A DNA stretch of 64,000 nt from an uncultured Acidobacteriota bacterium (GTDB lineage Bacteria > Acidobacteriota > Thermoanaerobaculia > UBA5066 > DATFVB01): contig OY970224.1 in NCBI GenBank assembly GCA_963714035.1, positions 2,337,996 through 2,401,995 of the forward strand. Reading direction: 5' to 3'. How positions within the stretch are numbered: position 1 is the first letter of the stretch; the number at the start of each line of letters is the position of its first letter. The position numbers were made by a program, and so were the translations under genes. The notes beneath the pieces are model-generated. The model made no database searches and was not told where the DNA came from. It worked only from the letters and a program-made list of their open reading frames with translations. Shown here piece after piece: positions 12,432-50,201 of this stretch.

Positions 12432-13315
12432 GCGACAAGACGATCGCGAAGGTTCTGCTCCTGGTCGCCGACTCGGAATCGGCGAAGACGGCGACCCGGT
12501 TCGCCGGAGTTCTGGCCGCCCGATGCGGCGCCGCGGTGACCGCGTTCTCGGTCGCGCGCCCGGGCGCGGTCCGCACCGACCTCGAGCACGCGCTCTCCGA
12601 GGCGACGACGACGCTCGGGAAATCTTCCGTCGCGGTCGAAACGGCGATCGTCGAAGGGGACCTGATCCCCGAAGCGGCGAAGAAGGCGAAGGACGGCTAC
12701 GACCTGACGATCTTCGGCGCGTCTTCGAGGACGGGACGCGAGGGCCGCCGTCTCTCGCTCGGCGTCTGGCAGCTCGCCAAGAGCGTCGAGACACCCGTGC
12801 TCCTCATCCCGCGCGAGGCGAAGCCGTCCGTCGAGCGAATCCTCGTCTGTACCGGCGGGGAGCGTTACATCGAGAAGGGCGTGCGGTTCGTCTCGATTTT
12901 GGCGGGCTGCCTCGGCGCGCAGGTCTCGCTCCTCCACATCCTTCCGGTCGCGCCGGAGATGTACCGCGCCTGGGCGCCGGAGCCGCGGGTCCCGGACCGG
13001 CTGCTCGCCGGAGAGAGCCGGCGCGCGCGCGTCCTGCGGGACCAGATCGCGATCTTCCAGAAGGAAGGCGTCGCCGCGAGCCTCGTCCTGGAGGAGAGCG
13101 ACTCGATCGAACGCACGATCTTCGACGTCTGCCGCCGGATCGACGCCCAGCTCCTCGTCGTCGGCTCGTCGCCCATCCGCGGGCGGCTGCGGACATCGAT
13201 GCTGGGAAGCGTCACGCGCGACGTGATCGTCCGCGCGAACGTGCCGGTCCTGATCGTCCGATCGAACCCGGCGGGGCTGCTGCGGGACCTCTGGAAGATT
13301 CTGAGGGAAGGGTGA
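12428..13315 (+). CDS. Tandem universal stress protein (UspA) domain protein
   Basis: Two Usp domains, each ending in an LVVGS...G...GSV-like ATP-binding motif. GTG start at 12428 overlaps the TauE stop (GTGA). Confidence 0.75.
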   Translation: MSDKTIAKVLLLVADSESAKTATRFAGVLAARCGAAVTAFSVARPGAVRTDLEHALSEATTTLGKSSVAVETAIVEGDLIPEAAKKAKDGYDLTIFGASSRTGREGRRLSLGVWQLAKSVETPVLLIPREAKPSVERILVCTGGERYIEKGVRFVSILAGCLGAQVSLLHILPVAPEMYRAWAPEPRVPDRLLAGESRRARVLRDQIAIFQKEGVAASLVLEESDSIERTIFDVCRRIDAQLLVVGSSPIRGRLRTSMLGSVTRDVIVRANVPVLIVRSNPAGLLRDLWKILREG

Positions 13316-13324
13316 GGGGAAGAA

Positions 13325-13493
13325 AACCCGAAGCACGAAATCCGAAATCCGAAACAAATCGAAAATCCGAATTCTCGAAGTAACAAAAAAGGGCGCGCCG
13401 GGGGCCATCCGGTCGATGAAATTCCCGATTCGGGTTTCGAAGCCTGGGGAATTTGAGTCTGTTTCGGATTTCGCGCTTCGAATTTCGAATTTC
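13325..13493. repeat. AT-rich palindromic MITE-like element (CGAAATCCGAAA ... TTTCGGATTTCG family), copy 1, immediately upstream of the kinase gene
   Basis: The left arm cgaagcacgaaatccgaaatccgaaacaaatcgaaaatccgaattc is the inverse of the right arm gaatttgagtctgtttcggatttcgcgcttcgaatttcgaatttcc. Related copies occur at 45880-46100 and 61217-61372. Confidence 0.7.
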
Positions 13494-13594: not shown

Positions 13595-16500
13595 ATGATC
13601 GGAACTCGTCTGGCGAATCGATACGAGATCCTCGCGGAGCTCGGGAGAGGCGGCATGGGCGTCGTGTATCGCGCGAAGGATCCCGTGCTCTCCCGCGAGG
13701 TCGCGGTGAAGCTGATCCCTCCCACGACCCTGACTCCGGAAATGGAGGAGCGCTTCCAGCGCGAAGCGCAGACCGTCGCGCAGCTGGACCATCCGGCGAT
13801 CGTCTCCATCCACGATTTCGGGAACCACGAGGGATCGCTCTTCTTCGTGATGCCGGTCGTGGGTGGCACCAATCTCCGCCGGCTCCTCTGGGAAAAATCG
13901 CTCGTGCTCGGGGACGTCCTGGAGATCGGGATCCAGGTGGCGGAGGCCCTCGACTACAGTCATGCCCGCAGCGTCGTCCACCGCGACATCAAGCCGGAGA
14001 ACATCATGGTCGCGCGCGAGGAAGGCGGGACGCTGCGCGTGCGCGTCATGGACTTCGGGCTCGCGCGGGCGGCCTCCGAGAACCGGCTCACAAAAACCGG
14101 CGCGCTCGTCGGGACGGTCTCCTACTTCAGCCCGGAGCAGATCACGTCCCATTCCTTCGACGGCCGTTCGGACATCTATTCCCTGGGAACGGTGCTCTAC
14201 GAGTGCGTGACCGGAGAACCGCCGTTTTCCGGCGAGATGCAGTCGATCCTCTACCGCATCGTTCACCAGATCCCGCAGCCTCCCCGCGCGGTGGGCGCCA
14301 ACATCCGCGAGGAACTCGAGGAGATCATCCTCCGCTGCCTCGAGAAGGATCCGGCCAGGCGTCCCCAGAAAGCCGGCCTGATCGCGGAGGCGATCAAGCT
14401 CCACCGGGCCAAGCTCCAGGCCGACGAGTCCCGCCGGTCCGTCGTTCTCACCCCGAGCCGCCTGATCCCCCGCCCCGTTCTCGCCCCGTTCATCGGCCGC
14501 CAGAAAGAGTTCGCGGAGCTGCAGCGCCGGCTCAACTCGGCGATTGCCGGCGAGTGCCAGTTCGTCGTCGTCGCGGGCGAGCCCGGCATCGGCAAGACGC
14601 GTCTTCTCGACGAGCTCGCCCGGCTCGCCGAAGCGCTGAACGTCCGCGTCCTGCGCGGGCGCTTCATCGAGCAGGACCGCGCGTTCGCCCACCAGGGGTT
14701 CTGCGAGCTGATCCAGGACTACTTTCGCTCGAAAGAGGCGTCCACGGCCTCCGGCGAGCGGCGCGACTTCTCGGACCTGGCGCCCGAGCTCCTCGCGCTT
14801 TTCCCGGTCCTCGGCGAGATCCCCGAGCTCCGTTCGGCAGCGGCCAGCGACTCGAAGCTTTCCGCCGCGGCGGAAAACCGACGCCTCGAAGACAAGACGG
14901 CGATCTTCGAGCTCCTCGCGCGGACCCTGACCCGGATGGCGGGCGGGAAGCCGCTCCTCCTGGTCCTCGAGAATCTCCACGGGGCGGAGGCTTCGATCGA
15001 GGCGCTCCAGTACGTCGTCCGGCGACTCGGTCCCACGCCGACGTGCATCGTCGCCAGCTACCGCCAGACGGAAGTCGACAAGCGGCATCCGCTCTCCCGG
15101 ATGCTCGACGGCTTCCAGGACGACCCTCGCTTCGCCTCCATGACGCTCGGGTCTTTCTCGCCCTCCGAGCACCGCGCGCTCGTCGAATCGGTGGCCGGCG
15201 GGGCGAAGATCGCCGATTCCCTGGCGCAGCGGCTGCTGGACGCGACGGAGGGAAATCCGTTCTTCACGAAGGAGCTCGTCCGCTCGATGATCGACACGGG
15301 CGGCATGGCGAAGGACCGGACGGGCGAGTGGAATTTCTCCGGAGGGACCGCGATCTCCTCCGAGAATCTCCCCGCCACGATCCAGCAGGCGATCGAAAAG
15401 CGCATCCAGCGACTTCCCGAAGAGCTCCGCGAGGTCCTGTCGGTCGCCTCGGTCCTCGGCAAGAGCTTCGAATTCCGGGACCTCGAGACGATCCTCGAGG
15501 GATCCAGGGACGCCGAGGACCTCGTCGAACGGCTCGTGCGCGAGGGCATCCTGGAGGAGGACCGGGAGTCGCGAGGCGACCGGCTGGCGTTTGCGAGCGG
15601 AATCGTCCGCGACGTGCTCTATTCCGAGCTCTCGCGGCGAAAGCGCCGCTCGCTCCACCGGAAGCTGGCCGAGATCCTCGAGAAGCGGCACGCGGGACGG
15701 CTGGAACGGATCTATCCCGAGCTCGTCCACCACTTCTCCGAAGGGGACGTCCCCGAAAAGACCGTCGACTACGGGCTGAAGCTCGCGCGGCGCTCGCTGG
15801 ACTCCTTCAGCGCCGACGAGGCGATCCGCGCGGTGAAGACGACGCTCGAGTACCTCGAGGACGAGGAGTGGCCGGGAGACCGCGCTCTCGAAGGGGATGC
15901 GCGGATGCTGCTGGCGCGGGCGCACCGCCTGGCGGGCAACGTGGAGGGAGCGCTCGACGAGTCGGAGGCGGCCGTCCGGGTGTTCGATCGCGAAAAGCAT
16001 CCCGACCGGAGCGCGGCCGCCCTGCTCTTCGCCGCGGAGAGCGCCTGGCAGGAGCGCCGCATCGACGAGGCGCGCCGGCTGGTCGAGCGCGGAATCGAAG
16101 CCGCGCGCTCGCGGGAAAAATCCGAGACGCTGTGGAAGCTCCTCTCGCTGGCCGCGACGGTCGCCAATCTCCGCGGGGAGTACCAGAGGGCATCCTCGTA
16201 TCTCGCCGAGATCGAACGTTTCGCGCCGAAGGAAAAGACAGAGGAGCAGGCGATTTCTCCGGGAGGCCGGCTCGCGGTCGGCATGCCCAACCCCGTCGCC
16301 GCGACCGAACCGTCGCTCGTGCAGACGATCGAGGAGGCCGAAGTCCTTCGGAACGTCTTCGAGACCCTGCTCACCACCGACGCGCGCGGCAATCTCGCTC
16401 CCCTGCTCGCCGAGAGCTGGGAAGTTTCCGGGGACGGAATGAAGGTCCGGCTGAAGCTGCGGCCGGACGTGCGCTTCTCCGACGGCTCGCCGCTCGACGC

Positions 16501-19258
16501 CGTGTCCGTCAAGGCCTGCGTCGAACGCAACGTCCGATTGCGCGGCGCGGAGACGCCCGCGGCCTTCGGAGCGATTCTCGGAGTTCGCGAGTTCCTCGAG
16601 AGCGGCGCCGATGCCGTCGCCGGAATCCGGGCGGGCTCCGATGGCGAGCTCCTGATCGAGCTCTCGGAATCCCTGCCGATCTATCCCGCGCTGCTGACCG
16701 ATCCGCAGACGGGCATCAGCCGGGAAAAGGACGGCCGATTCTTCGGCACCGGTCCGTTCCAGACGGCAGAATGGAGTAAGGATCGGATCGTCCTGGAACG
16801 CCATCCGCTCTGGTGGAAGGCGCCGCCGGCCCTGCTCGACAGCATCGAATTCCGAACGTCGTTGTCCGCGGCGGCGATCGCCTCGGGGCTGCGGTCGGGC
16901 GAGATCGACCTCGCGCGAGATCTCCTGCCGCAGGACGTCGAAGAGATCTCCCGCGACCCGCGGTTCCGCCCCGGCTTCGTCGAAACGCCGAAGAAGGACA
17001 CCTATTTCATCCTTTTCCAGACCTCGAGCACCGTCGGCTCGAATCCGGCGATGCGCCGGGCCCTGGCGGGCGTCGTCCGGGCCCAGGATCTGGTCTGGAG
17101 CACGCTCGGGCGATTCGCCCTGCCGGCAACCGGGCTCCTTCCCCCCGGAATTCTCGGTCACGATCCCGGCCGCCGCCGGCCGCATCTGGCCCGCGAGAAG
17201 GCCGCCGAGATGGCGGCATCCTCGGGCCTCACCCTTCCGCTGCGACTCAAGGCGTCCGTCCATCCGATATTCCAGGATCGCTGCCGCGCGCTGACGGCCC
17301 GGATCTTTTCCGCCTGGCGCGACCTCGGCGTGGAGGTCGACGTCGAAACGCCGACGATGGCGGAGTTCCTGGAATCGTGGGGGAAGCCGGGAAACGTCGG
17401 TCTGATGCTCGGCCGATGGAACGCCGACTACGACGACCCGGACAACTTCACCTATTCGCTCTTCCACTCCGGCAACGGGCTCTTGAAGGCGTACTTTTCG
17501 AGCCCGGAGAGCGACCGGCTCCTCGAGGAGGCTCGCTCCGAGAGCCGCCCCGCCGCGCGGGAGGCGCTCTACCGGAAATTCGAGAACGCCCTTCTCGACT
17601 CGGACGTCATCGTTCCGCTCCTCCACGACGTCGACTACCGGGTGGCCAGCCCGGCCGTCCGGGGGCTCGAGCTCCGCAGCAGCGCCCCGTTCGTCAACTA
17701 CGCCGAAATCGGAAAAGTCGCCTCGGTTCCCGAGCCGGCCGAGGCGCCGCTCCGCGCCTGGACCGAAGGAATCGTGCACGTGCCGATCGCGGGCGACTTC
17801 AAGGAGCTCGATCCGGTCTATGCCGATACCGCGCAACAGGTCGAGACGCTTCCGAGCATCTTCGAGGCGCTGACCCGGGACGTCCGGGGAGGGCAGATCG
17901 TCCCGTGGCTCGTCTCCGAATTCGTGGCGGAGGAGGGGGGTCGGAGATTCCGCTTCCGCCTGCGGCCCGGCGTGCGCTTCCACGACGGCCGACGACTCAC
18001 CTCCCGGGACGTTCGAGCGAGCTTCGAACGTTTGCTCCAGACGCCGAAGAGCCAGACGCGATTCCTGCTTTCCTCGGTCCGGGGCGCGGATCGGATCATC
18101 GCGGGGCAGGCGACCGAGCTCGAGGGCTTCCGCATCCTCTCGCCATCGGAATTCCTGATCGATCTCGAGCAGCCGATCGCGTTCTTTCCCGCTCTGCTTT
18201 CCTACCCGGCCCTGGCGATCCTGCCGGAAGGAACGGGCAAGGTGGGTGTCGCATGGCGCGAAGGCTGCGTCGGCACGGGGCCTTTCCGCGTCGTGAGCTT
18301 CGAGCCGGGCCGCCGGCTCGAAACGGAGCGAAACCCGCTGTACTGGCGGGAAGGCCTTCCGAAGAGCGAGGGACTCGTTTTTCACTTCGCCGTGACCCCC
18401 GAGACGATTCGCAACGAGTTCCTCGCGGGACGATATTCGCTCGCCTCCGACCTGCTCCCCGTCGACGCGGAAGCGTTCCGCCAGAACCCGCTGTACGCGC
18501 CGAACTACCGGGAAGTCCCCAGACTCACGACCTATTACGTCGCCTTCAATTCTCACAGGGGTTTCTTCGCGGACCCCGAGCGCCGGCGCGGCATGGCCGC
18601 GGCGTTCAGCGCTCCCGAAATCGTCCGGCGCACCCTCGGCCGCATCGCCGTGCCCGCGACGGGGCTCATCCCGCCCGGACTGCTGGGCGCGGACGCCGCT
18701 TCCGCGGTGAAAGACGCTCGGGCGGCCCGCCCCGAAACTGCGTCCGGCGAGCACACCGTCTCGCGGGAGACGACCGAAATCTCCCTCGTCCTGCACCCGG
18801 TCTTCCTCGGGGAGTTCTCGGCGTTCTACACCGAGCTCCGGCAGATCCTGCGCGAAGCGGGATTCGTGCTTCGACCGGTCAACGGAGACTCGATGCCCGA
18901 GTTCGTCGAGGCCACCGGCCGGGGCGATGCCGACCTGTTCATCGGGCGTTGGAACGCCGACTATCCCGATGCCGACACGTTCGTCCACGGCGTCCTTCAT
19001 TCGCTGGCGGGCAACAATCGAAATTTCTGCTCGAGCCCCGAAATCGACCGGCTGGTCGAACAGGGGCGCACCGAGCTCGACCCGCGCGCGCGCCATTCGA
19101 TCTACCGGAAGGTCGAAGAGTTGATCGCCCGGGAGGTCCTGATCGTCCCGCTCTTCCACGAGCGCCTCTATCGCTTCGCGCGGCCCGAGATCGAAGGGCT
19201 GAACGTCGGTTTCGGCGTGACGGCGGTGCCTTACGAGGAGCTGCGGATCCGACACTGA
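13595..19258 (+). CDS. Giant multidomain protein: Ser/Thr protein kinase, STAND/AAA_16 ATPase, TPR-like region, then two SBP_bac_5 (OppA/DppA-type) solute-binding domains
   Basis: Kinase motifs GRGGMGVVY, VAVK, HRDIKPENI and DFGLA are present. The P-loop is VVAGEPGIGKTRLL. Two ~480-aa family-5 SBP domains follow (LAESWEVSGDG...RFSDGSP and LVSEFVAEEGGRRFRFRLRPGVRFHDG). No TM segment or signal peptide was detected. Confidence 0.85.
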   Translation: MIGTRLANRYEILAELGRGGMGVVYRAKDPVLSREVAVKLIPPTTLTPEMEERFQREAQTVAQLDHPAIVSIHDFGNHEGSLFFVMPVVGGTNLRRLLWEKSLVLGDVLEIGIQVAEALDYSHARSVVHRDIKPENIMVAREEGGTLRVRVMDFGLARAASENRLTKTGALVGTVSYFSPEQITSHSFDGRSDIYSLGTVLYECVTGEPPFSGEMQSILYRIVHQIPQPPRAVGANIREELEEIILRCLEKDPARRPQKAGLIAEAIKLHRAKLQADESRRSVVLTPSRLIPRPVLAPFIGRQKEFAELQRRLNSAIAGECQFVVVAGEPGIGKTRLLDELARLAEALNVRVLRGRFIEQDRAFAHQGFCELIQDYFRSKEASTASGERRDFSDLAPELLALFPVLGEIPELRSAAASDSKLSAAAENRRLEDKTAIFELLARTLTRMAGGKPLLLVLENLHGAEASIEALQYVVRRLGPTPTCIVASYRQTEVDKRHPLSRMLDGFQDDPRFASMTLGSFSPSEHRALVESVAGGAKIADSLAQRLLDATEGNPFFTKELVRSMIDTGGMAKDRTGEWNFSGGTAISSENLPATIQQAIEKRIQRLPEELREVLSVASVLGKSFEFRDLETILEGSRDAEDLVERLVREGILEEDRESRGDRLAFASGIVRDVLYSELSRRKRRSLHRKLAEILEKRHAGRLERIYPELVHHFSEGDVPEKTVDYGLKLARRSLDSFSADEAIRAVKTTLEYLEDEEWPGDRALEGDARMLLARAHRLAGNVEGALDESEAAVRVFDREKHPDRSAAALLFAAESAWQERRIDEARRLVERGIEAARSREKSETLWKLLSLAATVANLRGEYQRASSYLAEIERFAPKEKTEEQAISPGGRLAVGMPNPVAATEPSLVQTIEEAEVLRNVFETLLTTDARGNLAPLLAESWEVSGDGMKVRLKLRPDVRFSDGSPLDAVSVKACVERNVRLRGAETPAAFGAILGVREFLESGADAVAGIRAGSDGELLIELSESLPIYPALLTDPQTGISREKDGRFFGTGPFQTAEWSKDRIVLERHPLWWKAPPALLDSIEFRTSLSAAAIASGLRSGEIDLARDLLPQDVEEISRDPRFRPGFVETPKKDTYFILFQTSSTVGSNPAMRRALAGVVRAQDLVWSTLGRFALPATGLLPPGILGHDPGRRRPHLAREKAAEMAASSGLTLPLRLKASVHPIFQDRCRALTARIFSAWRDLGVEVDVETPTMAEFLESWGKPGNVGLMLGRWNADYDDPDNFTYSLFHSGNGLLKAYFSSPESDRLLEEARSESRPAAREALYRKFENALLDSDVIVPLLHDVDYRVASPAVRGLELRSSAPFVNYAEIGKVASVPEPAEAPLRAWTEGIVHVPIAGDFKELDPVYADTAQQVETLPSIFEALTRDVRGGQIVPWLVSEFVAEEGGRRFRFRLRPGVRFHDGRRLTSRDVRASFERLLQTPKSQTRFLLSSVRGADRIIAGQATELEGFRILSPSEFLIDLEQPIAFFPALLSYPALAILPEGTGKVGVAWREGCVGTGPFRVVSFEPGRRLETERNPLYWREGLPKSEGLVFHFAVTPETIRNEFLAGRYSLASDLLPVDAEAFRQNPLYAPNYREVPRLTTYYVAFNSHRGFFADPERRRGMAAAFSAPEIVRRTLGRIAVPATGLIPPGLLGADAASAVKDARAARPETASGEHTVSRETTEISLVLHPVFLGEFSAFYTELRQILREAGFVLRPVNGDSMPEFVEATGRGDADLFIGRWNADYPDADTFVHGVLHSLAGNNRNFCSSPEIDRLVEQGRTELDPRARHSIYRKVEELIAREVLIVPLFHERLYRFARPEIEGLNVGFGVTAVPYEELRIRH

Positions 19259-19295: not shown

Positions 19296-19597
19296 GAGGC
19301 GATCTGTCATCCCGAGCGAAGCGGCCTGCCGCGCCGACTCGTCCCGCCGAGGCTTCAGCGAAGGAGGAAGCCCTGGCGAAGGCGGGAAGGATCTTCGCCG
19401 GCAGGCGAGTTGCGGGTTGCGAGTGAAGAGTGCGAGACCGGGGCAGATCCTTCGTCGCTTCCGCCTTCGCTCTCCGAGCTACGGCGGACAAGTCGCTCCT
19501 CAGGATGACAAGGTGGGGAATGTCATCCTGAGCGTAGCGAAGGATCTGCTCCGTCGGTTTTCCGCAACTCGCCAACTCGGAACTCGCCAACTCGTAA
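19296..19597. repeat. Composite block of two dispersed repeat families (GTCATCC[TC]GAGCGAAGCG..AAGGATCTG and GGCGAGTTGCGAGTTGCGAGT) between convergent genes
   Basis: Contains gtcatcccgagcgaagcggcctgc, cagatccttcgtcgcttccgcc, ctcctcaggatgacaaggtggggaatgtcatcctgagcgtagcgaaggatctg, plus ggcgagttgcgggttgcgagtg and its inverse gcaactcgccaactcggaactcgccaactcg. Confidence 0.75.
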
Positions 19598-20173
19598 CTA
19601 GTGTTTCAGCGCCGTCTCCAGCTTCCCGGTGTTCGCGTCCACGATCACCGACAGTCCGCCGCTCTTCGACTGGTCCTTCGTGAAATTCAGGTACCAGAAG
19701 GCGCGTCGCGTCTGCGGCTCGGCATCCGATCCGAGCATGACGGCGTAGCCCTGCGCGATCAGGCTGCCGCCGTGCTCCTTCGCCATCGCGTAGAGCTTCG
19801 CGCCGTCCCGGAAGAAGCCGGGCTTGAGATCCGGAATCCGGCCGGACGGGTTCGGCATCGCGAAGCACGTGAGGTATCCGGCGTTGGTCGAAACGAAGAC
19901 GCTCTGCTTCGCGCTCTCCGACCAGAACTGGAGGTTCCAGGCGACCGACGTTCCGTCGGGTTGCAGCGGGCCGAGCACGGTGTTCTCGATCTTCGCCGGG
20001 ACGGCGTCCTTCTTCCACGCCTTCGCGAAACCTTCCGCTTTACCGTACATGTCGGCGAGTGTCAGCGCCGGCTTCGGCAGGGCGACGGTCTTGCACGCCT
20101 CCTGAGCATCTGCCGTCCAAAAAGCAAAGAGCGCGACCGCGGCAAACAATACACGAAACAGGCCGTTCTTCAC
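19598..20173 (-). CDS. Secreted hypothetical protein
   Basis: Signal peptide MKNGLFRVLFAAVALFAFWTADA. No recognised domain. GTG start. Confidence 0.5.
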   Translation of the reverse strand: MKNGLFRVLFAAVALFAFWTADAQEACKTVALPKPALTLADMYGKAEGFAKAWKKDAVPAKIENTVLGPLQPDGTSVAWNLQFWSESAKQSVFVSTNAGYLTCFAMPNPSGRIPDLKPGFFRDGAKLYAMAKEHGGSLIAQGYAVMLGSDAEPQTRRAFWYLNFTKDQSKSGGLSVIVDANTGKLETALKH

Positions 20174-20229
20174 GAAGTCTCCTCCCGCTGTTTTCGCGGA
20201 AGGGTATCACCGGCGAAGCCAGTGGCGAG

Positions 20230-20314
20230 TTGCGAGTTGCGAGTTGCGAGTGACAAACGCCATGACCCGCCACCCGTAACTCGCAAACGCGAAACTCGCC
20301 ACTGCGGCCGCCCC
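20230..20314. repeat. Hairpin repeat of the GGCGAGTTGCGAGTTGCGAGT family
   Basis: cagtggcgagttgcgagttgcgagttgcgagtgacaaacgccatgacccgccacccgtaactcgcaaacgcgaaactcgccactg is an almost perfect inverted repeat. Related copy at 50075-50184. Confidence 0.75.
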
Positions 20315-27870: not shown

Positions 27871-28407
27871 TCAGGCAGGAACATACGCCAGCCTGATCAC
27901 GTTCTCGCCGATCCGATCACCAGAGATAAGCCGGAGCGGCGGCGGTGGCTCTGCGAAATAGGGCTTGCCGCGACTCAGCACGACGGGATGGAGGTAGATT
28001 CTGTATTCATCGATCAGGCCCAGCTCGGTGAGGCCTTGCGCGAGGGTCGGTCCGGCAACTTCGATCTCCCCGTCACGCTCGGCCTTCAGCTCGCGGATCG
28101 CGCCCTCGAGATCATTCTCGACGAGGCTGGCATTCGGTCCGACCGACTTCAGGGAACGCGAGACGACCCATTTCGGCTGTTTCCGCCATATCGCCGCGAA
28201 AGCGTTTTCCTCTTCGCCCCAGTCAGGCTGATCGTCGTCCCAGTAGCGCATGACCTCATATATTCGGCGGCCGTACACACTGCCCGCCTGCCCCCGAGCC
28301 TCCTCGATGAAGTGGCGGAAGAGCGCGGGGCTTGGCGCAAACGATGCATGATCGACGTAGCCGTCCAGGGACTGGTTCATTGCGAACACGAGCCTCGCCA
28401 TACCCAC
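27871..28407 (-). CDS. Dihydrofolate reductase-like (RibD C-terminal domain) family protein
   Basis: MARLVFAMNQSLDGY...GR.Y...............................P..VVS......NA......L.... matches the YwjB/RibD_C family. Confidence 0.7.
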   Translation of the reverse strand: MGMARLVFAMNQSLDGYVDHASFAPSPALFRHFIEEARGQAGSVYGRRIYEVMRYWDDDQPDWGEEENAFAAIWRKQPKWVVSRSLKSVGPNASLVENDLEGAIRELKAERDGEIEVAGPTLAQGLTELGLIDEYRIYLHPVVLSRGKPYFAEPPPPLRLISGDRIGENVIRLAYVPA

Positions 28408-28494
28408 TTCCTTTCCGTGCGCGGCAGATCCGCGCGGATGAGCCGACCGAGCGCCTCGACGTCTTCGGCGTTGAGGGCGGTCACCGTGCGGCCT

Positions 28495-28548
28495 GACGAC
28501 ACGAGCTCAGCGGCAAGCCCGCAGGGCGCGGTCCGATGCAAGCGCATG
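28495..28548. repeat. Degenerate copy of the island REP-like element
   Basis: gagctcagcggcaagcccgcagggcgcggtccgatgcaagcgcatg resembles the consensus GGCTTCAGCGGCGGCAAGCCGCAGGCGCGCCGTCCGCTGCAAGCCGATG. Confidence 0.5.
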
Positions 28549-28669
28549 CCAGGCGGCGCCGATGCGGCCGTGCGTGCATGTGGCCTTCCTGCTCGTGGCG
28601 CCAGCCACGGCTTGACGCGCCGACCCGGGCATCGCGAAAGGAAGTAGCTCACGCCGCCAAGCCGTTTCT

Positions 28670-29047
28670 TCAGGAAGCACTCCGCCGAGCTCGCAACGCC
28701 TGGACCGCCAGGATGATCGAGAACGCCCCGTTGACTCCGAGAACATAGAGCGTCCAGATGAACAGCAGGGCGCCGCCCTTCTCGAGAAACTCCGGGCGCA
28801 ATCCATGCCGCATGTGCAGTGGCAGCATCAAGACGGCTATCACGCCGCCAAGTAGCATGATCACCTTGCCCACTGCCCGTTCTCGCAGCAGCACGGCGCC
28901 GCAGACAATCACGAGCAGACTCCCGACGCCGACAAGATGATTGAGCCCAGCGCGGTCGAACCCGAAGACAATGTCTTGCGAGATATGCAGGGCAAGCAGA
29001 AGCACGGAGAGTATCGAGGTCAGACTCAAGAGATCGTTCTGCTTCAT
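28670..29047 (-). CDS. Membrane protein (4 TM), hypothetical
   Basis: 125 aa with four hydrophobic helices. GC ~55%. Confidence 0.5.
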   Translation of the reverse strand: MKQNDLLSLTSILSVLLLALHISQDIVFGFDRAGLNHLVGVGSLLVIVCGAVLLRERAVGKVIMLLGGVIAVLMLPLHMRHGLRPEFLEKGGALLFIWTLYVLGVNGAFSIILAVQALRARRSAS

Positions 29048-29103
29048 GGAGGGCGCTCCTTTTCAGTCTGTGTGACCTGCGTTAACTGCCTAACCACCCG
29101 GGT

Positions 29104-29460
29104 TCAGCGGCGGCACGGCGCGCCTGAGGCGTCCCGAACCGTGATCGCTAGGAAATCGGCGTCGGTTGAAACCATCTCAGGCTGAATGTTCTTGGGAAGT
29201 GCACAGAACTCTTGACGCCGGACTTCGCCGGATAAACTCTTCAGCTGCTCGGCGGATAAGTGGATGAGCCGTGACGAGACCCCAGGATGAACACACGTAT
29301 CTTCGCTCCGTCGGTGAGCGAAACCCGACGCATAGATTGCCGTGTACCATCCTGCACCGCACCATACCGTTCGCTCGACCTCGATGATCGGCTTCTCCTC
29401 AGCGCCAAAGGCCACTGATGCAATCAGCACGATCATTCCGCCAACGGTGACTAGCCGCAT
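29104..29460 (-). CDS. Secreted hypothetical protein
   Basis: Signal peptide MRLVTVGGMIVLIASVAFGA. Confidence 0.45.
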   Translation of the reverse strand: MRLVTVGGMIVLIASVAFGAEEKPIIEVERTVWCGAGWYTAIYASGFAHRRSEDTCVHPGVSSRLIHLSAEQLKSLSGEVRRQEFCALPKNIQPEMVSTDADFLAITVRDASGAPCRR

Positions 29461-29513
29461 AACGACCCGGCTTCAGCGGCAAGGCCGAAGTCCGCTGCAA
29501 GCCGATGTTCGGG
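29461..29513. repeat. Island REP-like hairpin element, copy 1
   Basis: aacgacccggcttcagcggcaaggccgaagtccgctgcaagccgatgttcgg, with paired CAGCGG/CCGCTG and CGAAC/GTTCG arms. Confidence 0.75.
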
Positions 29514-29520
29514 GTGCGCA

Positions 29521-30140
29521 TCATTTGGGCGCCTTTCGCGCACCCGTGTCAACAACGAACTCATGCTGCTTCCGGCTCCACCGATATCGCCTGTCCCCAC
29601 TACTTTGGGTCAGTTGGGCGTTGTTGTACACGCCGACTCGAAAACCGTTCTCGGTGGGCCAGATGCCGATAGAGCTGGATATACCACCGAACCTATCGCC
29701 AGCGATCGGGAGAGCGCTTATGCGACCGCTGGGAGCGATGGTGAGCACGTGGTAGCCAGAGAAACCCATGCAGCTCGGCTGCTCGATTGTGAAATCCGGG
29801 TCGCCGTCGTCGTTGTAATCGTCAAATTCCAGCTGAGTCTCACCGTTTCTCAAGAATGTGAGGTCGGGTTCGCCGGTCACCTCGTTCAAATCGGTAGTGA
29901 CTTGTGTTCCAGTGTCGAGCGTGGCGATTGCTTTAAACTGGCCAACCCACACGTCAGCCGCAGGCCCAGCGCAGCTCTTGGCTTCCGGCCTCGCGTTGCC
30001 GACTTCGATTCGTACGGCCGCCACTTTCATACTCAGATCCGCCCGGACGATGGAGTTTACGACTACGGCTGGCTTTTCGGCCGCCACGGCGGAAACCGTC
30101 ATCGTTAGCCCCGCAAGTATTGCCAAAGTGCTCGAGAACC
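29521..30140 (-). CDS. Secreted hypothetical protein; the start is approximate because the annotated N-terminus runs into REP copy 2
   Basis: Signal-like segment TLAILAGLTMTVSAVAA. The ORF-track start at 30228 would translate the REP element (IGFQRTARLRLAAAEA). Confidence 0.45.
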
Positions 30141-30149
30141 ATCGCGCCC

Positions 30150-30212
30150 CGAACGACCAGGCTTCAGCGGCGGCAAGCCGCAGGCGCGCCGTCCGCTGAA
30201 AGCCGATGTTCG
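30150..30212. repeat. Island REP-like hairpin element, copy 2
   Basis: cgaacgaccaggcttcagcggcggcaagccgcaggcgcgccgtccgctgaaagccgatgttcg. Confidence 0.8.
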
Positions 30213-30224
30213 CCCGCCCGCCGA

Positions 30225-30770
30225 TCATCGTGAACCGACCAGTATCTGCGCCGGCGCAGCCTCAAGCCTCGTGTCGTAGCAGCCATAAACGTCGCAATCA
30301 GAGCCGTACACGATTGATTGCGACACGCTGACTCGGGCGGGCCCTTCGCCGACATCTGGAATTCGTACAGAATCGGTCCAGGTAAACGTTGCCTTGGGAT
30401 CGACGTGGAACGTTGACTTGCAGTACGGGTGGCCTACACGCGTCGAGAGCCCTCTGCTCCGCGCGCTGCCATCGAATCTGATGTCCCGACTCGAGCCAAT
30501 GCAGCCCTCAATGGTCTGATCGCCGCTGTTCGTTACGCCGAGCCGGACGATTACTTCCTGGTTGGCGGTGACATGGTCGGCGGAGAGGCTGATCGATAGG
30601 GCAAGATTCTCGCGGTAGCGGGCGAGCTGAGCGGTGATTCGTGTCCATGCCTCGGGCGAAGCCCGTTGGGGTAGCGTCTGTCCAGACCGTTGCGGAGAAT
30701 GGTTCTGGTTTTGCGCTGCGCAAGAGAACCCGAGGGCAGCTACGATGCCGATGACCACCACACCACTCGC
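30225..30770 (-). CDS. Secreted hypothetical protein; start approximate for the same reason
   Basis: Hydrophobic segment VVVIGIVAALGFSCAA. The upstream part of the ORF translates REP copy 3. Confidence 0.4.
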   Translation of the reverse strand, partial: ASGVVVIGIVAALGFSCAAQNQNHSPQRSGQTLPQRASPEAWTRITAQLARYRENLALSISLSADHVTANQEVIVRLGVTNSGDQTIEGCIGSSRDIRFDGSARSRGLSTRVGHPYCKSTFHVDPKATFTWTDSVRIPDVGEGPARVSVSQSIVYGSDCDVYGCYDTRLEAAPAQILVGSR

Positions 30771-30808
30771 CTTACACCTGCTCAACGGTAAGCCTCGCTC
30801 GGGGCGGG

Positions 30809-30873
30809 CGAACGACCCGAGTTCAGCGGTGGCGAGCCGCAGGCGAGCCGTCCGCTGCAAGCCGATGTTCGGG
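30809..30873. repeat. Island REP-like hairpin element, copy 3
   Basis: cgaacgacccgagttcagcggtggcgagccgcaggcgagccgtccgctgcaagccgatgttcggg. Confidence 0.8.
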
Positions 30874-30886
30874 AACGTCAGATTAC

Positions 30887-31624
30887 TCATTCAGCGGGCC
30901 ATGTGAACCGAAATTGTACGTGAGTACCAGCCGGCACCCCATCGAGAACGTCGCTTCCGTCCGGTCTCGTCACGGCAAATCCCAGACCAGGAGGACGCCG
31001 AAGGGTCTCAGCAGCCAAATTATCCGGCGGCGTGATCGCGAAGAGGGTCTCGACCGCAAAAGCCCGCGACACGATACCGTTGAGCTCACCCGCTTTGGTC
31101 CAATGGAAGTCGAGTTGAAATCTTGCATCCTCAGGTCTTGTCGTGAAGGTGCCGGGCGTGACGTACATTGCCCACTCTTTCGGCCAAGGACTCTTTCCGA
31201 AGAGGCCCTGAACCCAAGCTGGGGGAATGACGGAGACTCCAGGTATCGATTTGGCGCTAATCGCGCCACAGATCAATTTCATAAACCATTTTTCGAGACC
31301 ACGCCCGTCGAGGTTAGCGGCGATGTCTGACGCTCGGCCACGGACCCCGGTGCTCAAATGGTTCTGCCCTGCGACCAGCATCAGATTTCGGAAGTAGTCT
31401 CGCGCGTTACCGTCTAGACCGTCCAAGTCGTCGTGATGCTTTGCGCAGACGACATATCCGTGACCGTACGAGCCCGGCGCCATCGCTTTTGAGGAGCCCG
31501 CCTGCCACGCGAAGCCAGCGACCGTTACGGAACCCAGCATCACCTGCAGACTCCGTGAAATGAAGTGCTCGTCCTCAATGGCGCCAGAACAGTCGCCGAG
31601 AACCTCTGCGTAGCATTTCGCCAT
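30887..31624 (-). CDS. Cytoplasmic hypothetical protein with a possible His-Me finger / HNH-like motif
   Basis: 245 aa with no signal peptide. A C..C...H then CAKHHDDLDGLDGN......N.......NH arrangement is reminiscent of HNH, but the match is weak. Confidence 0.35.
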   Translation of the reverse strand: MAKCYAEVLGDCSGAIEDEHFISRSLQVMLGSVTVAGFAWQAGSSKAMAPGSYGHGYVVCAKHHDDLDGLDGNARDYFRNLMLVAGQNHLSTGVRGRASDIAANLDGRGLEKWFMKLICGAISAKSIPGVSVIPPAWVQGLFGKSPWPKEWAMYVTPGTFTTRPEDARFQLDFHWTKAGELNGIVSRAFAVETLFAITPPDNLAAETLRRPPGLGFAVTRPDGSDVLDGVPAGTHVQFRFTWPAE

Positions 31625-31664
31625 TTCTCAGGCCTTGTCGATTACCCGATACTGCTTACGTTCC

Positions 31665-31728
31665 CGAACGACCTGGCTTCAGCGGCGGCAAGCCGCAGGC
31701 GCGCCGTCCGCTGCAAGCCAATGTTCGG
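31665..31728. repeat. Island REP-like hairpin element, copy 4
   Basis: ccgaacgacctggcttcagcggcggcaagccgcaggcgcgccgtccgctgcaagccaatgttcgg. Confidence 0.8.
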
Positions 31729-31736
31729 CGTCTTCG

Positions 31737-32276
31737 TCATGACCGCGATGACCTGAGTACCATTGCCAGCGTGACCAGGAGACTCGCTAATATGCCAAGA
31801 ACGAGAATTCCAAGTGGGCGTTGATACCACGGAAGTATTGGGTGATCAGCCTCTAAGGCACGCCGTACCTCTGGACGAAGAGTTTCTGAAATTGCCTTCA
31901 TCTTATTCCTGAGGTTCGGTGCTAGGGCAGGCAGCCCGATTCCCGCCGCGACCGCGGACAGCCGCGATTCGTATCCGGCCGCGATCGTGTCGATCTCGGA
32001 GAGTGCGGCGCGTGACAGCCGGGCCGCCGCACGTTCCCTCAGCCAGCCAACCCTGGGTTTGGGAAGAAGGGCGATTCGCGTGAGACACAGTTGTTTCGCC
32101 TCCTCCAGCGCGTCGCAATAGATTTGGGAGTAGCCAGCCAGCAGGGCGCTTGAACGTGCCCGCCCGGCGCTAGCCTGCGAATTCGCCTCGCGTTCTAGGC
32201 GCTCCGTGACCCGCGCGTTGTGGTCCCGCCACGCTGCCTGACACTCTGCCAGGAGCCGTGACACATCGTTACTCAT
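31737..32276 (-). CDS. Hypothetical protein with a C-terminal TM anchor
   Basis: 179 aa. The helical N-terminal region is cytoplasmic-looking; a hydrophobic helix sits at the C-terminus (LGILVLGILASLLVTLAMVL). Confidence 0.4.
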   Translation of the reverse strand: MSNDVSRLLAECQAAWRDHNARVTERLEREANSQASAGRARSSALLAGYSQIYCDALEEAKQLCLTRIALLPKPRVGWLRERAAARLSRAALSEIDTIAAGYESRLSAVAAGIGLPALAPNLRNKMKAISETLRPEVRRALEADHPILPWYQRPLGILVLGILASLLVTLAMVLRSSRS

Positions 32277-36112: not shown

Positions 36113-36230
36113 CAGATCCTTCGTCGCTGTGCTCCTCAGGATGACAGTGACGGAGGGGCGTGATGCTGAACGCTGTCCCCCGTCATCCTGAGCGTTCCCC
36201 CCGTCATCCTGAGCGAAGCGAAGGATCTGC
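36113..36230. repeat. GTCATCCTGAGCGAAGCGAAGGATCTG-family inverted-repeat cluster, left flank of the GIY-YIG gene
   Basis: cagatccttcgtcgctgtgctcctcaggatgac ... ccgtcatcctgagcgttcccccc gtcatcctgagcgaagcgaaggatctg. Confidence 0.8.
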
Positions 36231-36553: not shown

Positions 36554-36568
36554 ACCGAGGACCGATGG

Positions 36569-36634
36569 CAGATCCTTCGCTCCGCTCAGGATGACAGAGA
36601 AAGGGTGCCACGTCGCTGTGCTCCTCAGGATGAC
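36569..36634. repeat. Same repeat family, right flank of the GIY-YIG gene
   Basis: cagatccttcgctccgctcaggatgac ... cgtcgctgtgctcctcaggatgac. Confidence 0.8.
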
Positions 36635-37574: not shown

Positions 37575-37740
37575 GCGAAATGCCGGCAGCCGCAGACGAG
37601 GGCGAGAGCCCTTCCCGTCATTGCGAGCCGAAGGCCGAAGCAATCTCCGAGTCTGGAAATCGCTTCGCTGCGCTCGCGATGACGCGACCGAGATCCCTCG
37701 TCGCATTCGCTCCTCGGGATGACAGGACTCACCCGCCGAC
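37575..37740. repeat. Hairpin repeat, a variant of the GTCAT(T/C)-GAGCGAAG family
   Basis: cgtcattgcgagccgaaggccgaagcaatctc ... gaaatcgcttcgctgcgctcgcgatgacg is an inverted repeat, followed by cattcgctcctcgggatgacagg. Confidence 0.65.
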
Positions 37741-40529: not shown

Positions 40530-43500
40530 GTGGCGGAAGCCCTCCGGCGCGCGGGGGTGCGCGCACAAACCGACCGCGCGGGGGTACCCGCGAAGACTGA
40601 GGGCGCGGAAGTGCGCGCCCAGACTGAACGCCCGGGGGTGCGGGCGCAGACAGAAGGCGCAGGCCGCCGTCGTCTCGTCGTCTCCGGCGCCGTCGGCGCT
40701 CTTCCGGGCGCGATCGCCGCGCTCCTTTCCGAATCGGCACCGGTGCTCGTCATCGCCGCCGACGAAAGCTCCGCCGAAACCGTCGCATCGGACGCCGCGG
40801 CGTTCGGCGGCGGAGGGATCTGCGTCGCCCCCGAACCGTCGCTCACTCCCTACCAGCGCGTCGCGCCGTCGCTGAAGTACCGGCGCTCGGAGTTCGCTCT
40901 CCTCACGGCTCTCGCGGAGAACGGCTGCCGGATCGCGGCCGTCCCGGCGCGGTTCCTGTTCGCCCGCCTGCCCTCCCCCGAGGGCTTCACCGAGCGGCGG
41001 TTCCCCGTCTCGCGCGGCGGGACGGCCGAACGCGGGGCGCTTCTGGCGTTCCTCGCGCGGGAGGGGTATGCCGCGACCGACCTCGTGACCGAAACCGGCG
41101 ACTTCGCCGCCCGCGGCGGAATCGTGGACGTGTTCCCGCCCGACCGCGACCGCCCGATCCGCATCGAGCTCGACGGCGACGAGGTCGCCTCGATCCGCAC
41201 GTTCGACCCGGACACGCAGCGCTCGGACGCCGTGCTCGAACGCGTCGTCGTGGGCCCCCTCGCCGCGGTCTCCGAGTCGGAGGAGGCCGAGGCGCTCCTC
41301 GAAGAGACGCTCGGCCGCGTCCCGTCCTCCGCCGAGAAGACGCTCTTCCTCCCGGCCGTCGCGGGCAACGCCGCGACGATCTTCGATTTCGCTCCCGGAG
41401 CGCAGGTCGTCGTGCTCGAGCCCGCCGCGGTCGAGGAGGCTCTCGCGCGGTGGAGCGACCGGGTCGCCGCGGACTACGAGCCCGAACGCGACGCGATCGC
41501 GCCCGAAGCGCTCCTCCACCCGGTCGCCGCGATCCGCGACGCGCTCGCCTCCCGGACCGGCGTGGCGCTCGACCGGCTCGGGCTCGCCGCCGGCTCTCCC
41601 GTCGCGCTCGCGGCCGAGGAGGTCACGGCGTTCGACGGACGCGTGCGCGAGGCTGCCGACGAGCTCCGCGCGGCGGCGGCGCGCGGCGAGAGCGTACTGG
41701 TGGCGGTGCATCCGAAGGGAGGCGCCGAGAAGCTCCGGCGGTTCGCCCGGGAATTCGACGTCGCGGCGACCGCGATTCCGGGACCGATCTCCGCCGGGTT
41801 CCGGCTGCGCGACGACGCGCTTTCGGTCTGGGCCGAGGAGCAGATCTTCGGCGCGGAACGGACCACCCCGGCGCCGCGGCGGCGCGCCTCCGAAGCCTTC
41901 CTCTCCGATCTGCGGGACCTGAAGCCCGGCGACTTCGTGGTCCACGCCGATTACGGGGTCGGCCGATTCCGGGCATTGAAACGCATCCCGGTCGAAGGGA
42001 GCGAGCACGAGTTCGTCGAGATCGGCTACGTCGACGACAAGACGCTCCTGCTTCCCGTCGAGCGTCTCGATCTCGTCCAGAAGTACTCGGGCGCGGAAGG
42101 GGGCGAGCCGAAGATCGACCGGCTCGGCAGCGCGTCGTGGGGGCGCAAGAAGGACGCGGCGCGCAAGGCCGTCAAGGACCTCTCCGAAGACCTGATCCGG
42201 ATCTACGCGCGGCGCGCGCAGGCGCAGGGTTTCGCGTTCTCGAAGGACTCTCCCTGGCAGAAGGAGTTCGAGGACGCGTTCGAGCACGTCGAGACTCCCG
42301 ACCAGGCGCAGGCGATCGCCGACGTCAAGCGCGACATGGAGCGCCCGTCGCCGATGGACCGGCTCCTCTGCGGCGACGTCGGATACGGAAAGACCGAGGT
42401 CGCGATGCGCGCCGCTTTCAAGGCGGTGCTCGACGGCAAGCAGGTCGCGGTGCTCGCGCCGACGACGATCCTCGCGGACCAGCACTACCGGACGTTCACG
42501 CGCCGATTCGCCGCGTTTCCCGTGACGATCGACCTCCTGTCGCGGTTCCGCGACCGCGCCGAGCAGAAGCGGATCGCCGCGAAAACCGCCGAAGGCGGCG
42601 TGGACATCCTGATCGCGACCCACCGCCTGCTCTCGAAGGACATCCGGTTCCGCGATCTCGGGCTCCTCGTCGTCGACGAGGAACAGCGGTTCGGCGTCGC
42701 GCAGAAGGAGCGGATCAAGGAATGGAAGGCGTCGGTCGACGTGCTCTCGATGTCGGCGACGCCGATCCCGCGTTCGCTGAACCTCTCGCTCTCGGGGCTG
42801 CGCGATCTCTCGATCATCGAGACGCCGCCGCGCAACCGCCTGGCGATCGAGACGCAGATCATCCCGAAGCACGGAGACCTCGTGCGCGAGGCGGTCGCGT
42901 TCGAGCTCGAGCGCGGAGGCCAGGTCTTCTACGTCCACAACCGCGTCGAGTCGATCCTCGCCGAGAAGACGTTCCTCTCGGAGCTCCTCCCGAACGCGCG
43001 CATCGTCGTGGGCCACGGCCAGATGAGCGAGGGAGGGCTCGAGCGCACGATGCTCGACTTCGTCGCCCGCAAGTACGACATCCTCCTCGCGACGACGATC
43101 ATCGAGAACGGCATCGACATCCCGTCGGTCAACACGATCGTCATCGACCGCGCCGACACTTTCGGGCTGTCGCAGCTCTACCAGCTCCGCGGCCGCGTCG
43201 GCCGGAGCGACAAGGCCGCGTACTGCTTCCTCGTGATCGAGCCGGACGCGGCGCTGACGGAGACGGCGCGGCAGCGCCTCGCGACGATCCGCGAGTTCTG
43301 CGACCTCGGGGCGGGCTTCCGGATCGCGGCGAAGGACCTCGAGATCCGCGGCGCCGGGAACTTCCTCGGCGCCGAGCAGTCGGGCCACATCGCCGCGGTC
43401 GGCCTCGAGATGTACCTCGACCTGCTCGACGAAGCGATGCGCCAGATCAAGGGAGAGGAGATCCTGCCGGAGCGGACGGTCACGATTTCGCTCGGAAGCG

Positions 43501-45876: not shown

Positions 45877-45879
45877 TGG

Positions 45880-46100
45880 AGAGGACGAAGTTCCAAATTC
45901 CAAGCGCGAAATTCCAATGAAGCGCGAATTTCGAATTCTCCAAACGAACCGGGCGCTCCTGGAGGGGCGGTATTGTCTGGAATCTGGAGATCGGTACTCG
46001 GAGCGCTTTACCGAGCCGGGACCGTTTGGGATTCCGTACCGGGAATTTCCTGGAATTTGATGCTTGGAACTTATTGGAATTTGATGCTTGGAGCTTGGAG
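45880..46100. repeat. AT-rich element related to the 13325/61217 family, including a 24-bp tandem duplication (GGAATTTGATGCTTGGARCTT x2, 46052-46099)
   Basis: Contains gcgcgaaattccaa/gcgcgaatttcgaattc, and the tandem ggaatttgatgcttggaacttatt ggaatttgatgcttggagcttgga. Confidence 0.65.
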
Positions 46101-46114
46101 TTTCCCCCGCTGAC

Positions 46115-46435
46115 ATGCTTCATCCCGTCCCGACCTCCATCCAGCAGATCGGCCGCGAGCTCGTCGCCGTCTGGGGCGACGGCCGCGAAGACTACTTTCC
46201 GCTCGAGACGCTCCGGCGCGAGTGCCCCTGCGCGATGTGCCGGGGGGAAGGCGATCTTCTCGGAAACGTCTACCGCGCCCCGCAGCGGCCGTACGGGCTC
46301 GGCGCGTTCCTCATGCACGGCTGGAAGAAGATCGGCGGCTACGCGATCCAGATCTTCTGGCAGGACGGCCACAACGACGGCATCTATTCGTACGAGATGC
46401 TGAGGAAGCTCGGGGAAAAGACCGAAACCGCCTAG
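46115..46435 (+). CDS. DUF971 domain protein (gamma-butyrobetaine hydroxylase-like N-terminal Zn-ribbon domain)
   Basis: The pattern ...L.V.W.DG......L..LR..CPCA.C...... is typical of DUF971. The start is set at ATG 46115, downstream of the ORF-track start. Confidence 0.7.
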   Translation: MLHPVPTSIQQIGRELVAVWGDGREDYFPLETLRRECPCAMCRGEGDLLGNVYRAPQRPYGLGAFLMHGWKKIGGYAIQIFWQDGHNDGIYSYEMLRKLGEKTETA

Positions 46436-50184: not shown

Positions 50185-50201
50185 GCGCGCCGCCGCGCGG
50201 G

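Follow-up and report, generated by a model that had tools for sequence, protein, structure and literature searches.

Reviews describe solute-binding proteins (SBPs) as extracytosolic, and the one characterised case that couples an SBP to a Ser/Thr kinase is a relay of three proteins across the membrane, GlnH/GlnX/PknG (PMC8050422). What might two such modules do at the C-terminal end of a kinase that has no export signal? The question is raised by a gene at 13595..19258 (+) of a 64,000-nucleotide stretch of DNA (the window) from an uncultured Acidobacteriota bacterium. The first-pass annotation, made from the letters of the window, had described there a single open reading frame (ORF) of 1887 residues, in which a Ser/Thr kinase is followed by a STAND ATPase, a TPR region and two OppA/DppA-type SBP domains. 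We find this ORF exactly as it was described. In our estimate, the probability is roughly 55% that its product is a soluble cytoplasmic kinase-STAND switch that uses the tandem SBP modules as its sensor and acts alone.

Architecture of the 1887-residue protein

The gene falls into eight segments, all on the + strand:

13595..14434, +, Hanks-type (PknB-like) Ser/Thr kinase, residues 1-280
14435..14485, +, kinase-NTPase linker, residues 281-297, poorly conserved and predicted to be disordered
14486..15598, +, STAND-type nucleotide-binding oligomerisation module (NOD), residues 298-668, comprising a nucleotide-binding domain (NBD) and, as predicted, a helical domain and a winged-helix domain
15599..16216, +, short TPR-like helical repeat of ten helices (an arm plus about two extra hairpins), residues 669-874
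16217..16276, +, linker between the TPR arm and the first SBP module, residues 875-894, predicted to be disordered
16277..17725, +, SBP module 1 (SBP1), a complete cluster-C (OppA/MppA/DppA-type) fold, residues 895-1377
17726..17764, +, inter-SBP linker, residues 1378-1390, with pLDDT below 50 at model residues 483-496
17765..19258, +, SBP module 2 (SBP2), a second complete cluster-C fold, residues 1391-1887 plus the stop codon

The ORF starts with ATG and is translated without interruption. Its GC content at codon positions 1, 2 and 3 (0.70/0.47/0.86) is that of coding sequence in a genome with 68% GC. An antisense ORF of 2284 residues overlaps the gene; since its codon-position GC shows the mirror pattern, the + frame is the coding one and the antisense ORF is a shadow. 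The ATG at 13595 is the first start codon downstream of the preceding in-frame stop, and therefore a hidden N-terminal extension or an upstream signal peptide is not possible. Checking for a frameshift that would split the kinase-ATPase part from the SBP part, we found none. The protein is intact and soluble, and the fusion is no artefact. A Pfam domain search, in which the TPR matches stayed below cutoff, also agrees with the proposed order of kinase, ATPase, TPR and two SBP domains.

The kinase domain matched Pfam Pkinase (PF00069) at residues 10-258 with 175 bits (cutoff 31.7), and its NCBIfam match is of the PknB/Stk1 type. The kinase motifs are all present (GRGGMG17, K39, E57, HRDIKPEN129-136, DFG153 and SPE179), and the motif residues are invariant across 26-40 homologues. 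For conservation we used an alignment of 26 sequences with 33-77% identity to the query, in which K39, E57, H129, D131, N136, DFG153-155 and PE180-181 are invariant. The arginine of the RD motif (R130) and two threonines of the activation loop (residues 153-181), Thr166 and Thr174, are conserved in at least 90% of the aligned homologues. The predicted structure has the bilobal kinase fold, and fold searches with the N-terminal model (residues 1-905) returned kinases only. The domain is apparently an active RD-type Hanks kinase. In the linker that follows, residues 285-296 have pLDDT values below 50.

The next domain gave a Pfam AAA_16 match at 298-486 (68.9 bits against a cutoff of 32.6). It carries a Walker A motif (GEPGIGKT328-335), a Walker B motif (LLLVLEN455-460) and a GxP-type motif (EGNPFF552-557). 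The Walker A glycines G328, G331 and G333 are invariant, as are G553, N554 and F557 of the GxP-type motif; K334 is kept in 25 and the Walker B E459 in 23 of the 26 sequences. In the AF2 model of residues 1-905 (pLDDT 82.4, pTM 0.48), the kinase and the disordered stretch 285-296 are followed by a five-stranded NBD, a helical domain, a winged helix, ten helices and a disordered stretch before SBP1; within the NOD the five strands are parallel, and a helical bundle lies between them and the winged helix. The Pfam AAA_16 match, an alignment to the NCBIfam model TIGR03903, the motifs and the predicted secondary structure are the basis on which we assign the domain to the STAND class, and it is apparently an active STAND-type NTPase.

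The helices of residues 669-874 are predicted at pLDDT 85-96. Two Pfam models, TPR_MalT (20.7 bits, cutoff 45) and TPR_12 (17.7 bits), matched below threshold at 770-889, and a profile search of the PDB gave weak TPR matches (E ~1e-3). Thus, the "TPR region" of the first-pass annotation exists as a helical repeat, but it has only about ten helices, which is roughly the size of an arm, and its Pfam TPR scores stay below cutoff. The linker behind it has pLDDT below 50 at residues 879-886 and low values up to residue 905 in the N-terminal model. The protein had also been called MalT-like, and this is not borne out by its sequence. The hhalign comparison with E. coli MalT aligned the Walker motifs only, with probabilities of 7% (A3) and 19% (A4); on these values and the TPR_MalT score we rejected a place in the MalT/LAL clade.

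Pfam SBP_bac_5 matched two stretches of the C-terminal half with 358 bits. The SBP1 match (residues 934-1294) covers model positions 2-365 of 368. Using phmmer, we find that SBP1 aligns with OppA (9rd1/3tcf; E 8e-36) over chain residues 23-498, and that SBP2 aligns with 8upi (E 6e-35) and with OppA 1b05 (E 3e-28, chain residues 23-497), so that both modules run end to end with about 23-498 of mature OppA (517 residues). NCBIfam models for OppA, NikA, GsiB and Opp4A also matched the C-terminal halves, all below their equivalog cutoffs. An AlphaFold model of residues 895-1887 (993 residues; 36-sequence alignment) reached pLDDT 89.3 and pTM 0.84, with disorder limited to the inter-module linker and one SBP2 loop. 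In Foldseek this model scored TM 0.73-0.87 to solved cluster-C SBPs (5u4o, YliB/GsiB, DppE, MppA, OppA and NikA). Domain search, OppA alignments and structure prediction thus agree that both SBP_bac_5 copies are complete. By blastp the two modules are 33% identical over 483 residues (E 4e-77), which points to an old internal duplication.

We looked for clues to the ligand by aligning E. coli OppA, DppA, NikA and SgrR with 14 SBP modules of the family. In OppA (D419) and DppA, an Asp forms a salt bridge to the alpha-amino group of the bound peptide. At this position OppA and DppA have Asp, NikA has Pro and SgrR has Asn; of the 14 family modules, 12 have Asp, one has Asn and one has Glu. When HMMER aligns SBP1 with E. 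coli OppA, RWNADY of SBP1 stands opposite GWCADY of OppA. The WNADY motif of SBP1 (residues 1275-1279) includes Asp1278, the equivalent of OppA Asp419, and that of SBP2 (residues 1786-1790) includes Asp1789. In the conservation alignment, D1278 is kept in 20 of 26 sequences and D1789 in 21, each with two further sequences carrying Glu; D1281 (SBP1) and D1792 (SBP2) are invariant. Because this OppA/DppA-type Asp is kept in both modules, the pattern is a hint that the ligand may be a peptide or an amine-bearing compound.

Where the protein resides was checked by a hydropathy scan of all 1887 residues and of the N-terminus, which found no signal peptide, no lipobox and no transmembrane segment, also not between the domains. 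The highest 19-residue Kyte-Doolittle mean in the whole protein is 1.38, compared with about 1.6 expected of a transmembrane helix, and the N-terminus leads straight into the kinase Gly-rich loop; we draw the negative result from these two observations. On one chain with two ATP-dependent domains (kinase and NTPase), and with no export signal, the SBP modules must, as judged from the sequence, be cytoplasmic.

Spread and conservation of the family

Searching 5.8 billion proteins, we found the identical entry and more than 119 other 90%-identity clusters that match at 62-77% identity and about 100% coverage. All of these are annotated with Pkinase, AAA_16 and SBP_bac_5. Where names are given, the matches are called 'ABC transporter substrate-binding protein' and come from metagenome-assembled genomes (MAGs) of Thermoanaerobaculia or Acidobacteriota. 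Among species-representative genomes, full-length copies at 55-63% identity occur in Thermoanaerobaculia, Vicinamibacteria, Pyrinomonadaceae and a Chloracidobacterium-labelled MAG; this contig scan was dominated by the generic kinase pattern DIKPENIM, and about 10 of its 80 loci had the full architecture. Matches of about 6 kb in Bacteroidota and Ignavibacteria were rejected, as they are tandem kinase gene arrays and lack the kinase-STAND-SBP architecture. In these MAGs (L015-L040, e.g. L020, L031 and L039), four to eight tandem Hanks-kinase genes or domains lie within ~6-8 kb, and it was through the kinase domain alone that the scan detected them.

With residues 290-1400 as the query, we scanned 1.84 billion 50%-identity representatives exhaustively by HMMER and retrieved dozens of representatives of 1830-1950 residues with identity down to 31%, together with a second class of about 1350-1390 residues. 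When searches were started from distant members, they brought in Blastocatellia, Vicinamibacteria and three proteins from Planctomycetota-labelled MAGs. In total, the architecture is present in at least 290 clusters (90% identity) with full-length coverage and the same Pfam set, mainly from Thermoanaerobaculia, Blastocatellia/Pyrinomonadaceae and Vicinamibacteria, with a few Planctomycetota MAG labels. The same domain order thus recurs in other genomes, as had been asked of it. The full-length members with a Planctomycetota label (P0404, P0423 and P0433; the L085 context contains TamA/TamB) may reflect horizontal transfer or mis-binning.

Variants exist. Pfam scans revealed a form with one SBP module (the P0195 group, about 1380 residues) and a form of about 2150 residues with tandem kinases, AAA_16 and two SBP modules (P0279), whose length is shared by about 30 more clusters. 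In one genome of 4.46 Mb (ERZ25039533 contig_25364), the full-length paralogues P0061 and P0071 occupy separate loci (L082 and L083), which lie about 0.76 Mb from each other and have unrelated neighbours. One of these two loci is flanked by other Ser/Thr kinases with TonB_C or PD40 domains.

Across the conservation alignment, mean identity to the query was 0.55 for the kinase, 0.48 for the NOD, 0.50 for the arm, 0.42 for the TPR, 0.44 for SBP1 and 0.43 for SBP2. The domains thus range over 0.42-0.55, and the kinase-NOD linker stands far below them at 0.15. Because of these similar values, with the linker so much lower, selection acts on the SBP modules, by the measure of sequence identity, about as strongly as on the enzymatic domains.

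The first-pass annotation did not know this architecture from described proteins. In the open-access literature we found no description of it either, an absence that is no proof, and in a 2026 survey of prokaryotic STAND sensors the terms 'solute' and 'substrate-binding' are absent. The architecture is not rare: a large Acidobacteriota-wide family that has it is already in public databases. The family is large, unstudied and mislabelled as an ABC-transporter component.

Neighbouring genes and flanking repeats

The immediate surroundings of the gene contain the following:

12434..13315, +, tandem universal stress protein with two Usp domains
13324..13485, no strand, upstream intergenic repeat of CGAAATCCGAAA-type units, AT-richer, with 24-nt inverted arms; not part of the system
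19296..19597, no strand, downstream intergenic repeat with GTCATCCTGAGCG[AT]AGCGAAGG cores at 19306 and 19522 (and, elsewhere in the window, at 36203 (+), 36574 (-) and 37662 (-)), in the convergent gap before the next gene; not part of the system
19598..20173, -, 191-residue protein without a Pfam match

Further upstream lie a TauE exporter gene (+) and an E1 dehydrogenase gene (-). Downstream, the 191-residue protein is followed by an alpha/beta hydrolase and a DUF2911-TPR protein, and all three are convergent with the kinase gene. The Usp gene ends 280 nt upstream on the same strand and is not conserved beside orthologues. No homologues of the window neighbours were found near the orthologues at loci L001, L002, L005 and L009. 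The neighbourhoods of five further homologues (L081-L085) differ from one another and are of a housekeeping kind (RuvC, YebC, AccD, FolC, SHMT, PolA, LpxC and TamA/TamB). Across the window and these nine other loci, no neighbour is conserved. Within about 7-10 kb of the gene in the window and in L081-L085, no Opp/Dpp-type permease or ATPase gene is present; the sole ABC genes seen near family loci, beside P0002, are of the Peripla_BP_2/FecCD type. A small sample of six loci with annotated neighbours contained no recognisable defence gene. The gene is a stand-alone unit among housekeeping genes with no cognate ABC transporter, and the suggestion of a self-contained system agrees with the lack of any partner gene conserved beside its homologues.

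Both repeat regions had been noted as bracketing the gene. In the upstream region, the inverted arms (13324-13347 and 13462-13485) are 88% complementary, and the CGAAATCCGAAA-type motif occurs again at the intergenic 61264-61373 (7 matches, 0.02 expected by chance). In the downstream region, a 29-nt core, GTCATCCTGAGCG[ATG]AGCGAAGGATCT, is found at 19306-19327 and 19521-19549 and again at 36203-36230 (+), 36568-36596 (-) and 37662-37683 (-), the copy at 37662 being degenerate; chance alone would give 0.01 such matches, compared with the 5 observed. Another short motif, GAGTTGCGGGTTGCGAGT-like, lies at 19404-19426 and again at 20224-20253. The 29-nt-core and GAGTTGCGGGTTGCGAGT-like repeats have the appearance of REP/MITE-like elements that form a family in this genome. 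Scanning the gene and its flanks, both repeats included, against Rfam gave no family match, and a promoter/terminator scan of the gene and its flanks gave no signal above chance. The two repeat regions exist, but their cores recur in other intergenic parts of the window, which makes them dispersed intergenic repeats without specific relation to the gene. On the same ground we rejected them as a functional bracket or as the boundary of a mobile element.

Elsewhere, the window has a GC content of 65-73% across most of its length, which falls to 0.60-0.61 at 28000-32000, compared with 0.65-0.73 elsewhere; several short minus-strand ORFs with weak GC3 bias lie in this part, which may be foreign or otherwise atypical DNA. 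The stretch 40530-60113 is ordinary chromosomal context, a cluster of genes for the cell envelope, morphogenesis and repair, with Mfd (40530-43898), two SurA-like peptidyl-prolyl isomerases, MreB (55644-56753) and a PBP2-type transpeptidase (58155-60113). At 46491-47786 (+), 27 kb away from the kinase gene, lies the gene of a POT/PTR2 proton-coupled di/tripeptide transporter, which might supply peptides to the cytoplasm.

A candidate cytoplasmic switch, its rivals and its relatives

STAND proteins are activated when an inducer releases the autoinhibition held by NOD, arm and sensor, after which they multimerise in an ATP-dependent manner (PMC6468293, PMC4381067). We propose that in the 1887-residue protein the tandem SBP modules would act as the sensor and replace the distal TPR sensor of PknK-type kinase-STAND proteins; they sit where related kinase-STAND proteins have a longer TPR region, which is the sensor position. 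The ligand would be cytoplasmic, maybe an oligopeptide taken up by the cell, a product of proteolysis or a muropeptide. Its capture by the SBP modules would relieve the NOD-arm-sensor autoinhibition, ADP would be exchanged for ATP, and the ATP-bound NODs would multimerise. Because RD kinases need activation-loop phosphorylation, kinases clustered in this way would trans-phosphorylate Thr166/Thr174. The N-terminal PknB-like RD kinase would be the effector and, once activated, may phosphorylate substrates encoded elsewhere in the genome. The earlier view of the SBP domains as candidate intracellular sensors fits their conservation, which equals that of the kinase, the kept Asp and the sensor position.

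Several results weigh against this proposal. Profile searches of the NOD-arm against the PDB retrieved no solved STAND and gave weak TPR/P-loop matches only. By sequence comparison, no solved STAND, MalT included, was detectably related to the NOD. The fold searches with the N-terminal model were swamped by kinases and had no STAND structure among their matches. In the SBP modules, the remaining OppA contacts (E32, Y109, K307, H371, R413 and W397) are not conserved in the family; these non-Asp contact residues differ between OppA and DppA too. Finally, a single protein, P0165 (2184 residues), has the order SIR2_2, kinase, AAA_16 and two SBP modules, and SIR2_2 is typical of defence effectors.

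The same contact residues raise the question of whether the modules bind a free ligand at all. They might instead serve protein-protein docking or form an autoinhibitory scaffold that clamps the NOD or kinase or binds an intramolecular peptide, with the signal sensed elsewhere, by the TPR arm or through phosphorylation by other kinases. Such a role would suit a pocket in which most OppA residues are unconserved and a fixed mutual arrangement of the two modules, as predicted for the 993-residue fragment at pTM 0.84; paralogue loci, moreover, often have other Ser/Thr kinases nearby, and STAND sensors do make autoinhibitory contacts with the NBD (PMC6468293). Against a scaffold speak the complete two-lobe fold, which keeps the ligand-amine Asp in ~80-88% of diverse members and is as conserved as the catalytic domains, and the fact that pocket residues vary among genuine ligand-binding SBPs too. 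We regard a scaffold as rather unlikely. The modules could also recognise a phage peptide or protein, as in an antiviral, Avs-like STAND sensor, with the kinase as effector as in Stk2- or PD-T4-6-type defences. The PADLOC models PD-T4-6 and mad6 match the kinase domain strongly, but these matches are confined to residues 1-300, the generic Hanks kinase domain. The added SIR2_2 of P0165 recalls Avs5 (PMC11897194), and defence and non-defence STAND clades are interspersed (PMC13581612). The six annotated loci (window plus five) speak against a defence role, being of housekeeping character (E1 dehydrogenase, Usp, RuvC, AccD, FolC, PolA, LpxC and TamAB) with no recognisable defence gene. Defence genes are expected to be patchily distributed, unlike this family, whose length is near-constant in hundreds of clusters and whose full-length identity is 55-63% across Acidobacteriota classes. 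An antiviral function is, on balance, improbable.

Public annotation takes another view. NCBI and JGI name most members as transport proteins, that is, as exported receptors that feed peptides to an Opp/Dpp-type permease, and OppA, MppA and DppA are indeed the closest relatives of the modules. Signal peptide, lipobox and transmembrane segment are all missing, however, the first ~890 residues form a kinase and an NTPase, which depend on ATP in the cytoplasm, and an Opp-type permease or ATPase was adjacent in no locus examined, the ABC genes beside P0002 being of another type. A transport role is very improbable, and the label 'ABC transporter substrate-binding protein' is contradicted by the sequence, with kinase and NTPase on the chain and no export signal. 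The fusion itself might be suspected to be an artefact, in which misassembly or a frameshift has joined a kinase-STAND gene with one or two separate SBP genes. Nothing was found in favour of this. The frame is single and unbroken with a uniform GC3 coding signature, the same ~1885-residue protein occurs in hundreds of independent assemblies, and the identical protein (P0001) is recorded on a 3.84-Mb contig; the uniform frame and the independent homologues rule the artefact out for practical purposes, and we give it hardly any credence.

What the sensor proposal would mean follows from where the modules are found: hundreds of Acidobacteriota lineages have two full OppA-like modules in the cytoplasm, joined in one polypeptide to a kinase and a STAND switch. 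Should the modules bind ligands, they would extend the range of sensor domains known for STAND proteins, provide a rare bacterial Ser/Thr kinase with a tractable small-molecule input, and give access to a physiological signal in a soil phylum that is very abundant but poorly cultured. Tentatively, and with less confidence than in the switch itself, one may see here the first STAND switch with a sensor of the periplasmic-binding-protein fold, which would form an Acidobacteriota-wide, single-polypeptide, peptide-sensing kinase hub for nutrient or cell-wall-turnover responses. The hundreds of entries misnamed 'ABC transporter substrate-binding protein' would inflate counts of peptide uptake in metagenome studies.

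Among known systems, M. tuberculosis PknK is alike in being soluble and in its architecture, which has a Ser/Thr kinase at the N-terminus, then a P-loop STAND module, then helical repeats; the relation is one of architecture. The sensor of PknK is helical, and PknK is not known to have solute-binding modules. PknK is described as a soluble STAND Ser/Thr kinase and has been proposed to integrate metabolic and starvation signals (PMC9045387). The best NCBIfam match to the NOD-arm core is TIGR03903, 'TOMM system kinase/cyclase fusion protein', with the order kinase, cyclase, AAA_16 and TPR. Residues 296-870 align with its model positions 480-1039 of 1267 (whole-protein E 1e-82), but the score of 278.6 is below the cutoff of 705.75, and the 1887-residue protein has no Guanylate_cyc match. 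The last ~230 residues of the model are unmatched, and this is where the SBP modules start. MalT and PH0952 share the logic of the layout (effector, NBD, helical domain, winged-helix domain, arm and C-terminal sensor) and serve as the mechanistic template for the activation proposed above; they differ in having a DNA-binding effector and a TPR/SUPR sensor, and no significant sequence relation was found.

SgrR and DsvR are cytoplasmic SBP_bac_5 sensors joined to an output domain (PMC13060122). Unlike the 1887-residue protein, in which Pfam found no helix-turn-helix, they have a helix-turn-helix output and a single SBP, and SgrR lacks the Asp. The SgrR model NF010149 matched only partially (residues 1421-1568; 44.9 bits against a cutoff of 476), compared with 183.9 bits for NCBIfam OppA. 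That the modules resemble OppA so much more than SgrR, and that they retain the Asp, suggests that they were recruited from a transport SBP independently of SgrR. To OppA, MppA and DppA they are alike in the full cluster-C fold (E values down to 8e-36, TM 0.73-0.87) and in the W-x-A-D motif. Those proteins are exported and paired with ABC permeases, whereas the family modules are in tandem, fused to signalling domains and without export signal or permease. A periplasmic-binding-protein fold also governs a kinase in GlnH-GlnX-PknG, where PknG has a TPR scaffold, and in the eukaryotic Venus-flytrap receptor kinases (PMC8050422, PMC8546545, PMC2680970). Their binding modules lie outside the cytosol, and the signal has to cross a membrane; the 1887-residue protein, in contrast, has everything on a single soluble chain, with a STAND NTPase between the kinase and the binding modules. 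Its parts and its switch logic are familiar, and what is unusual is the type of the sensor and its location.

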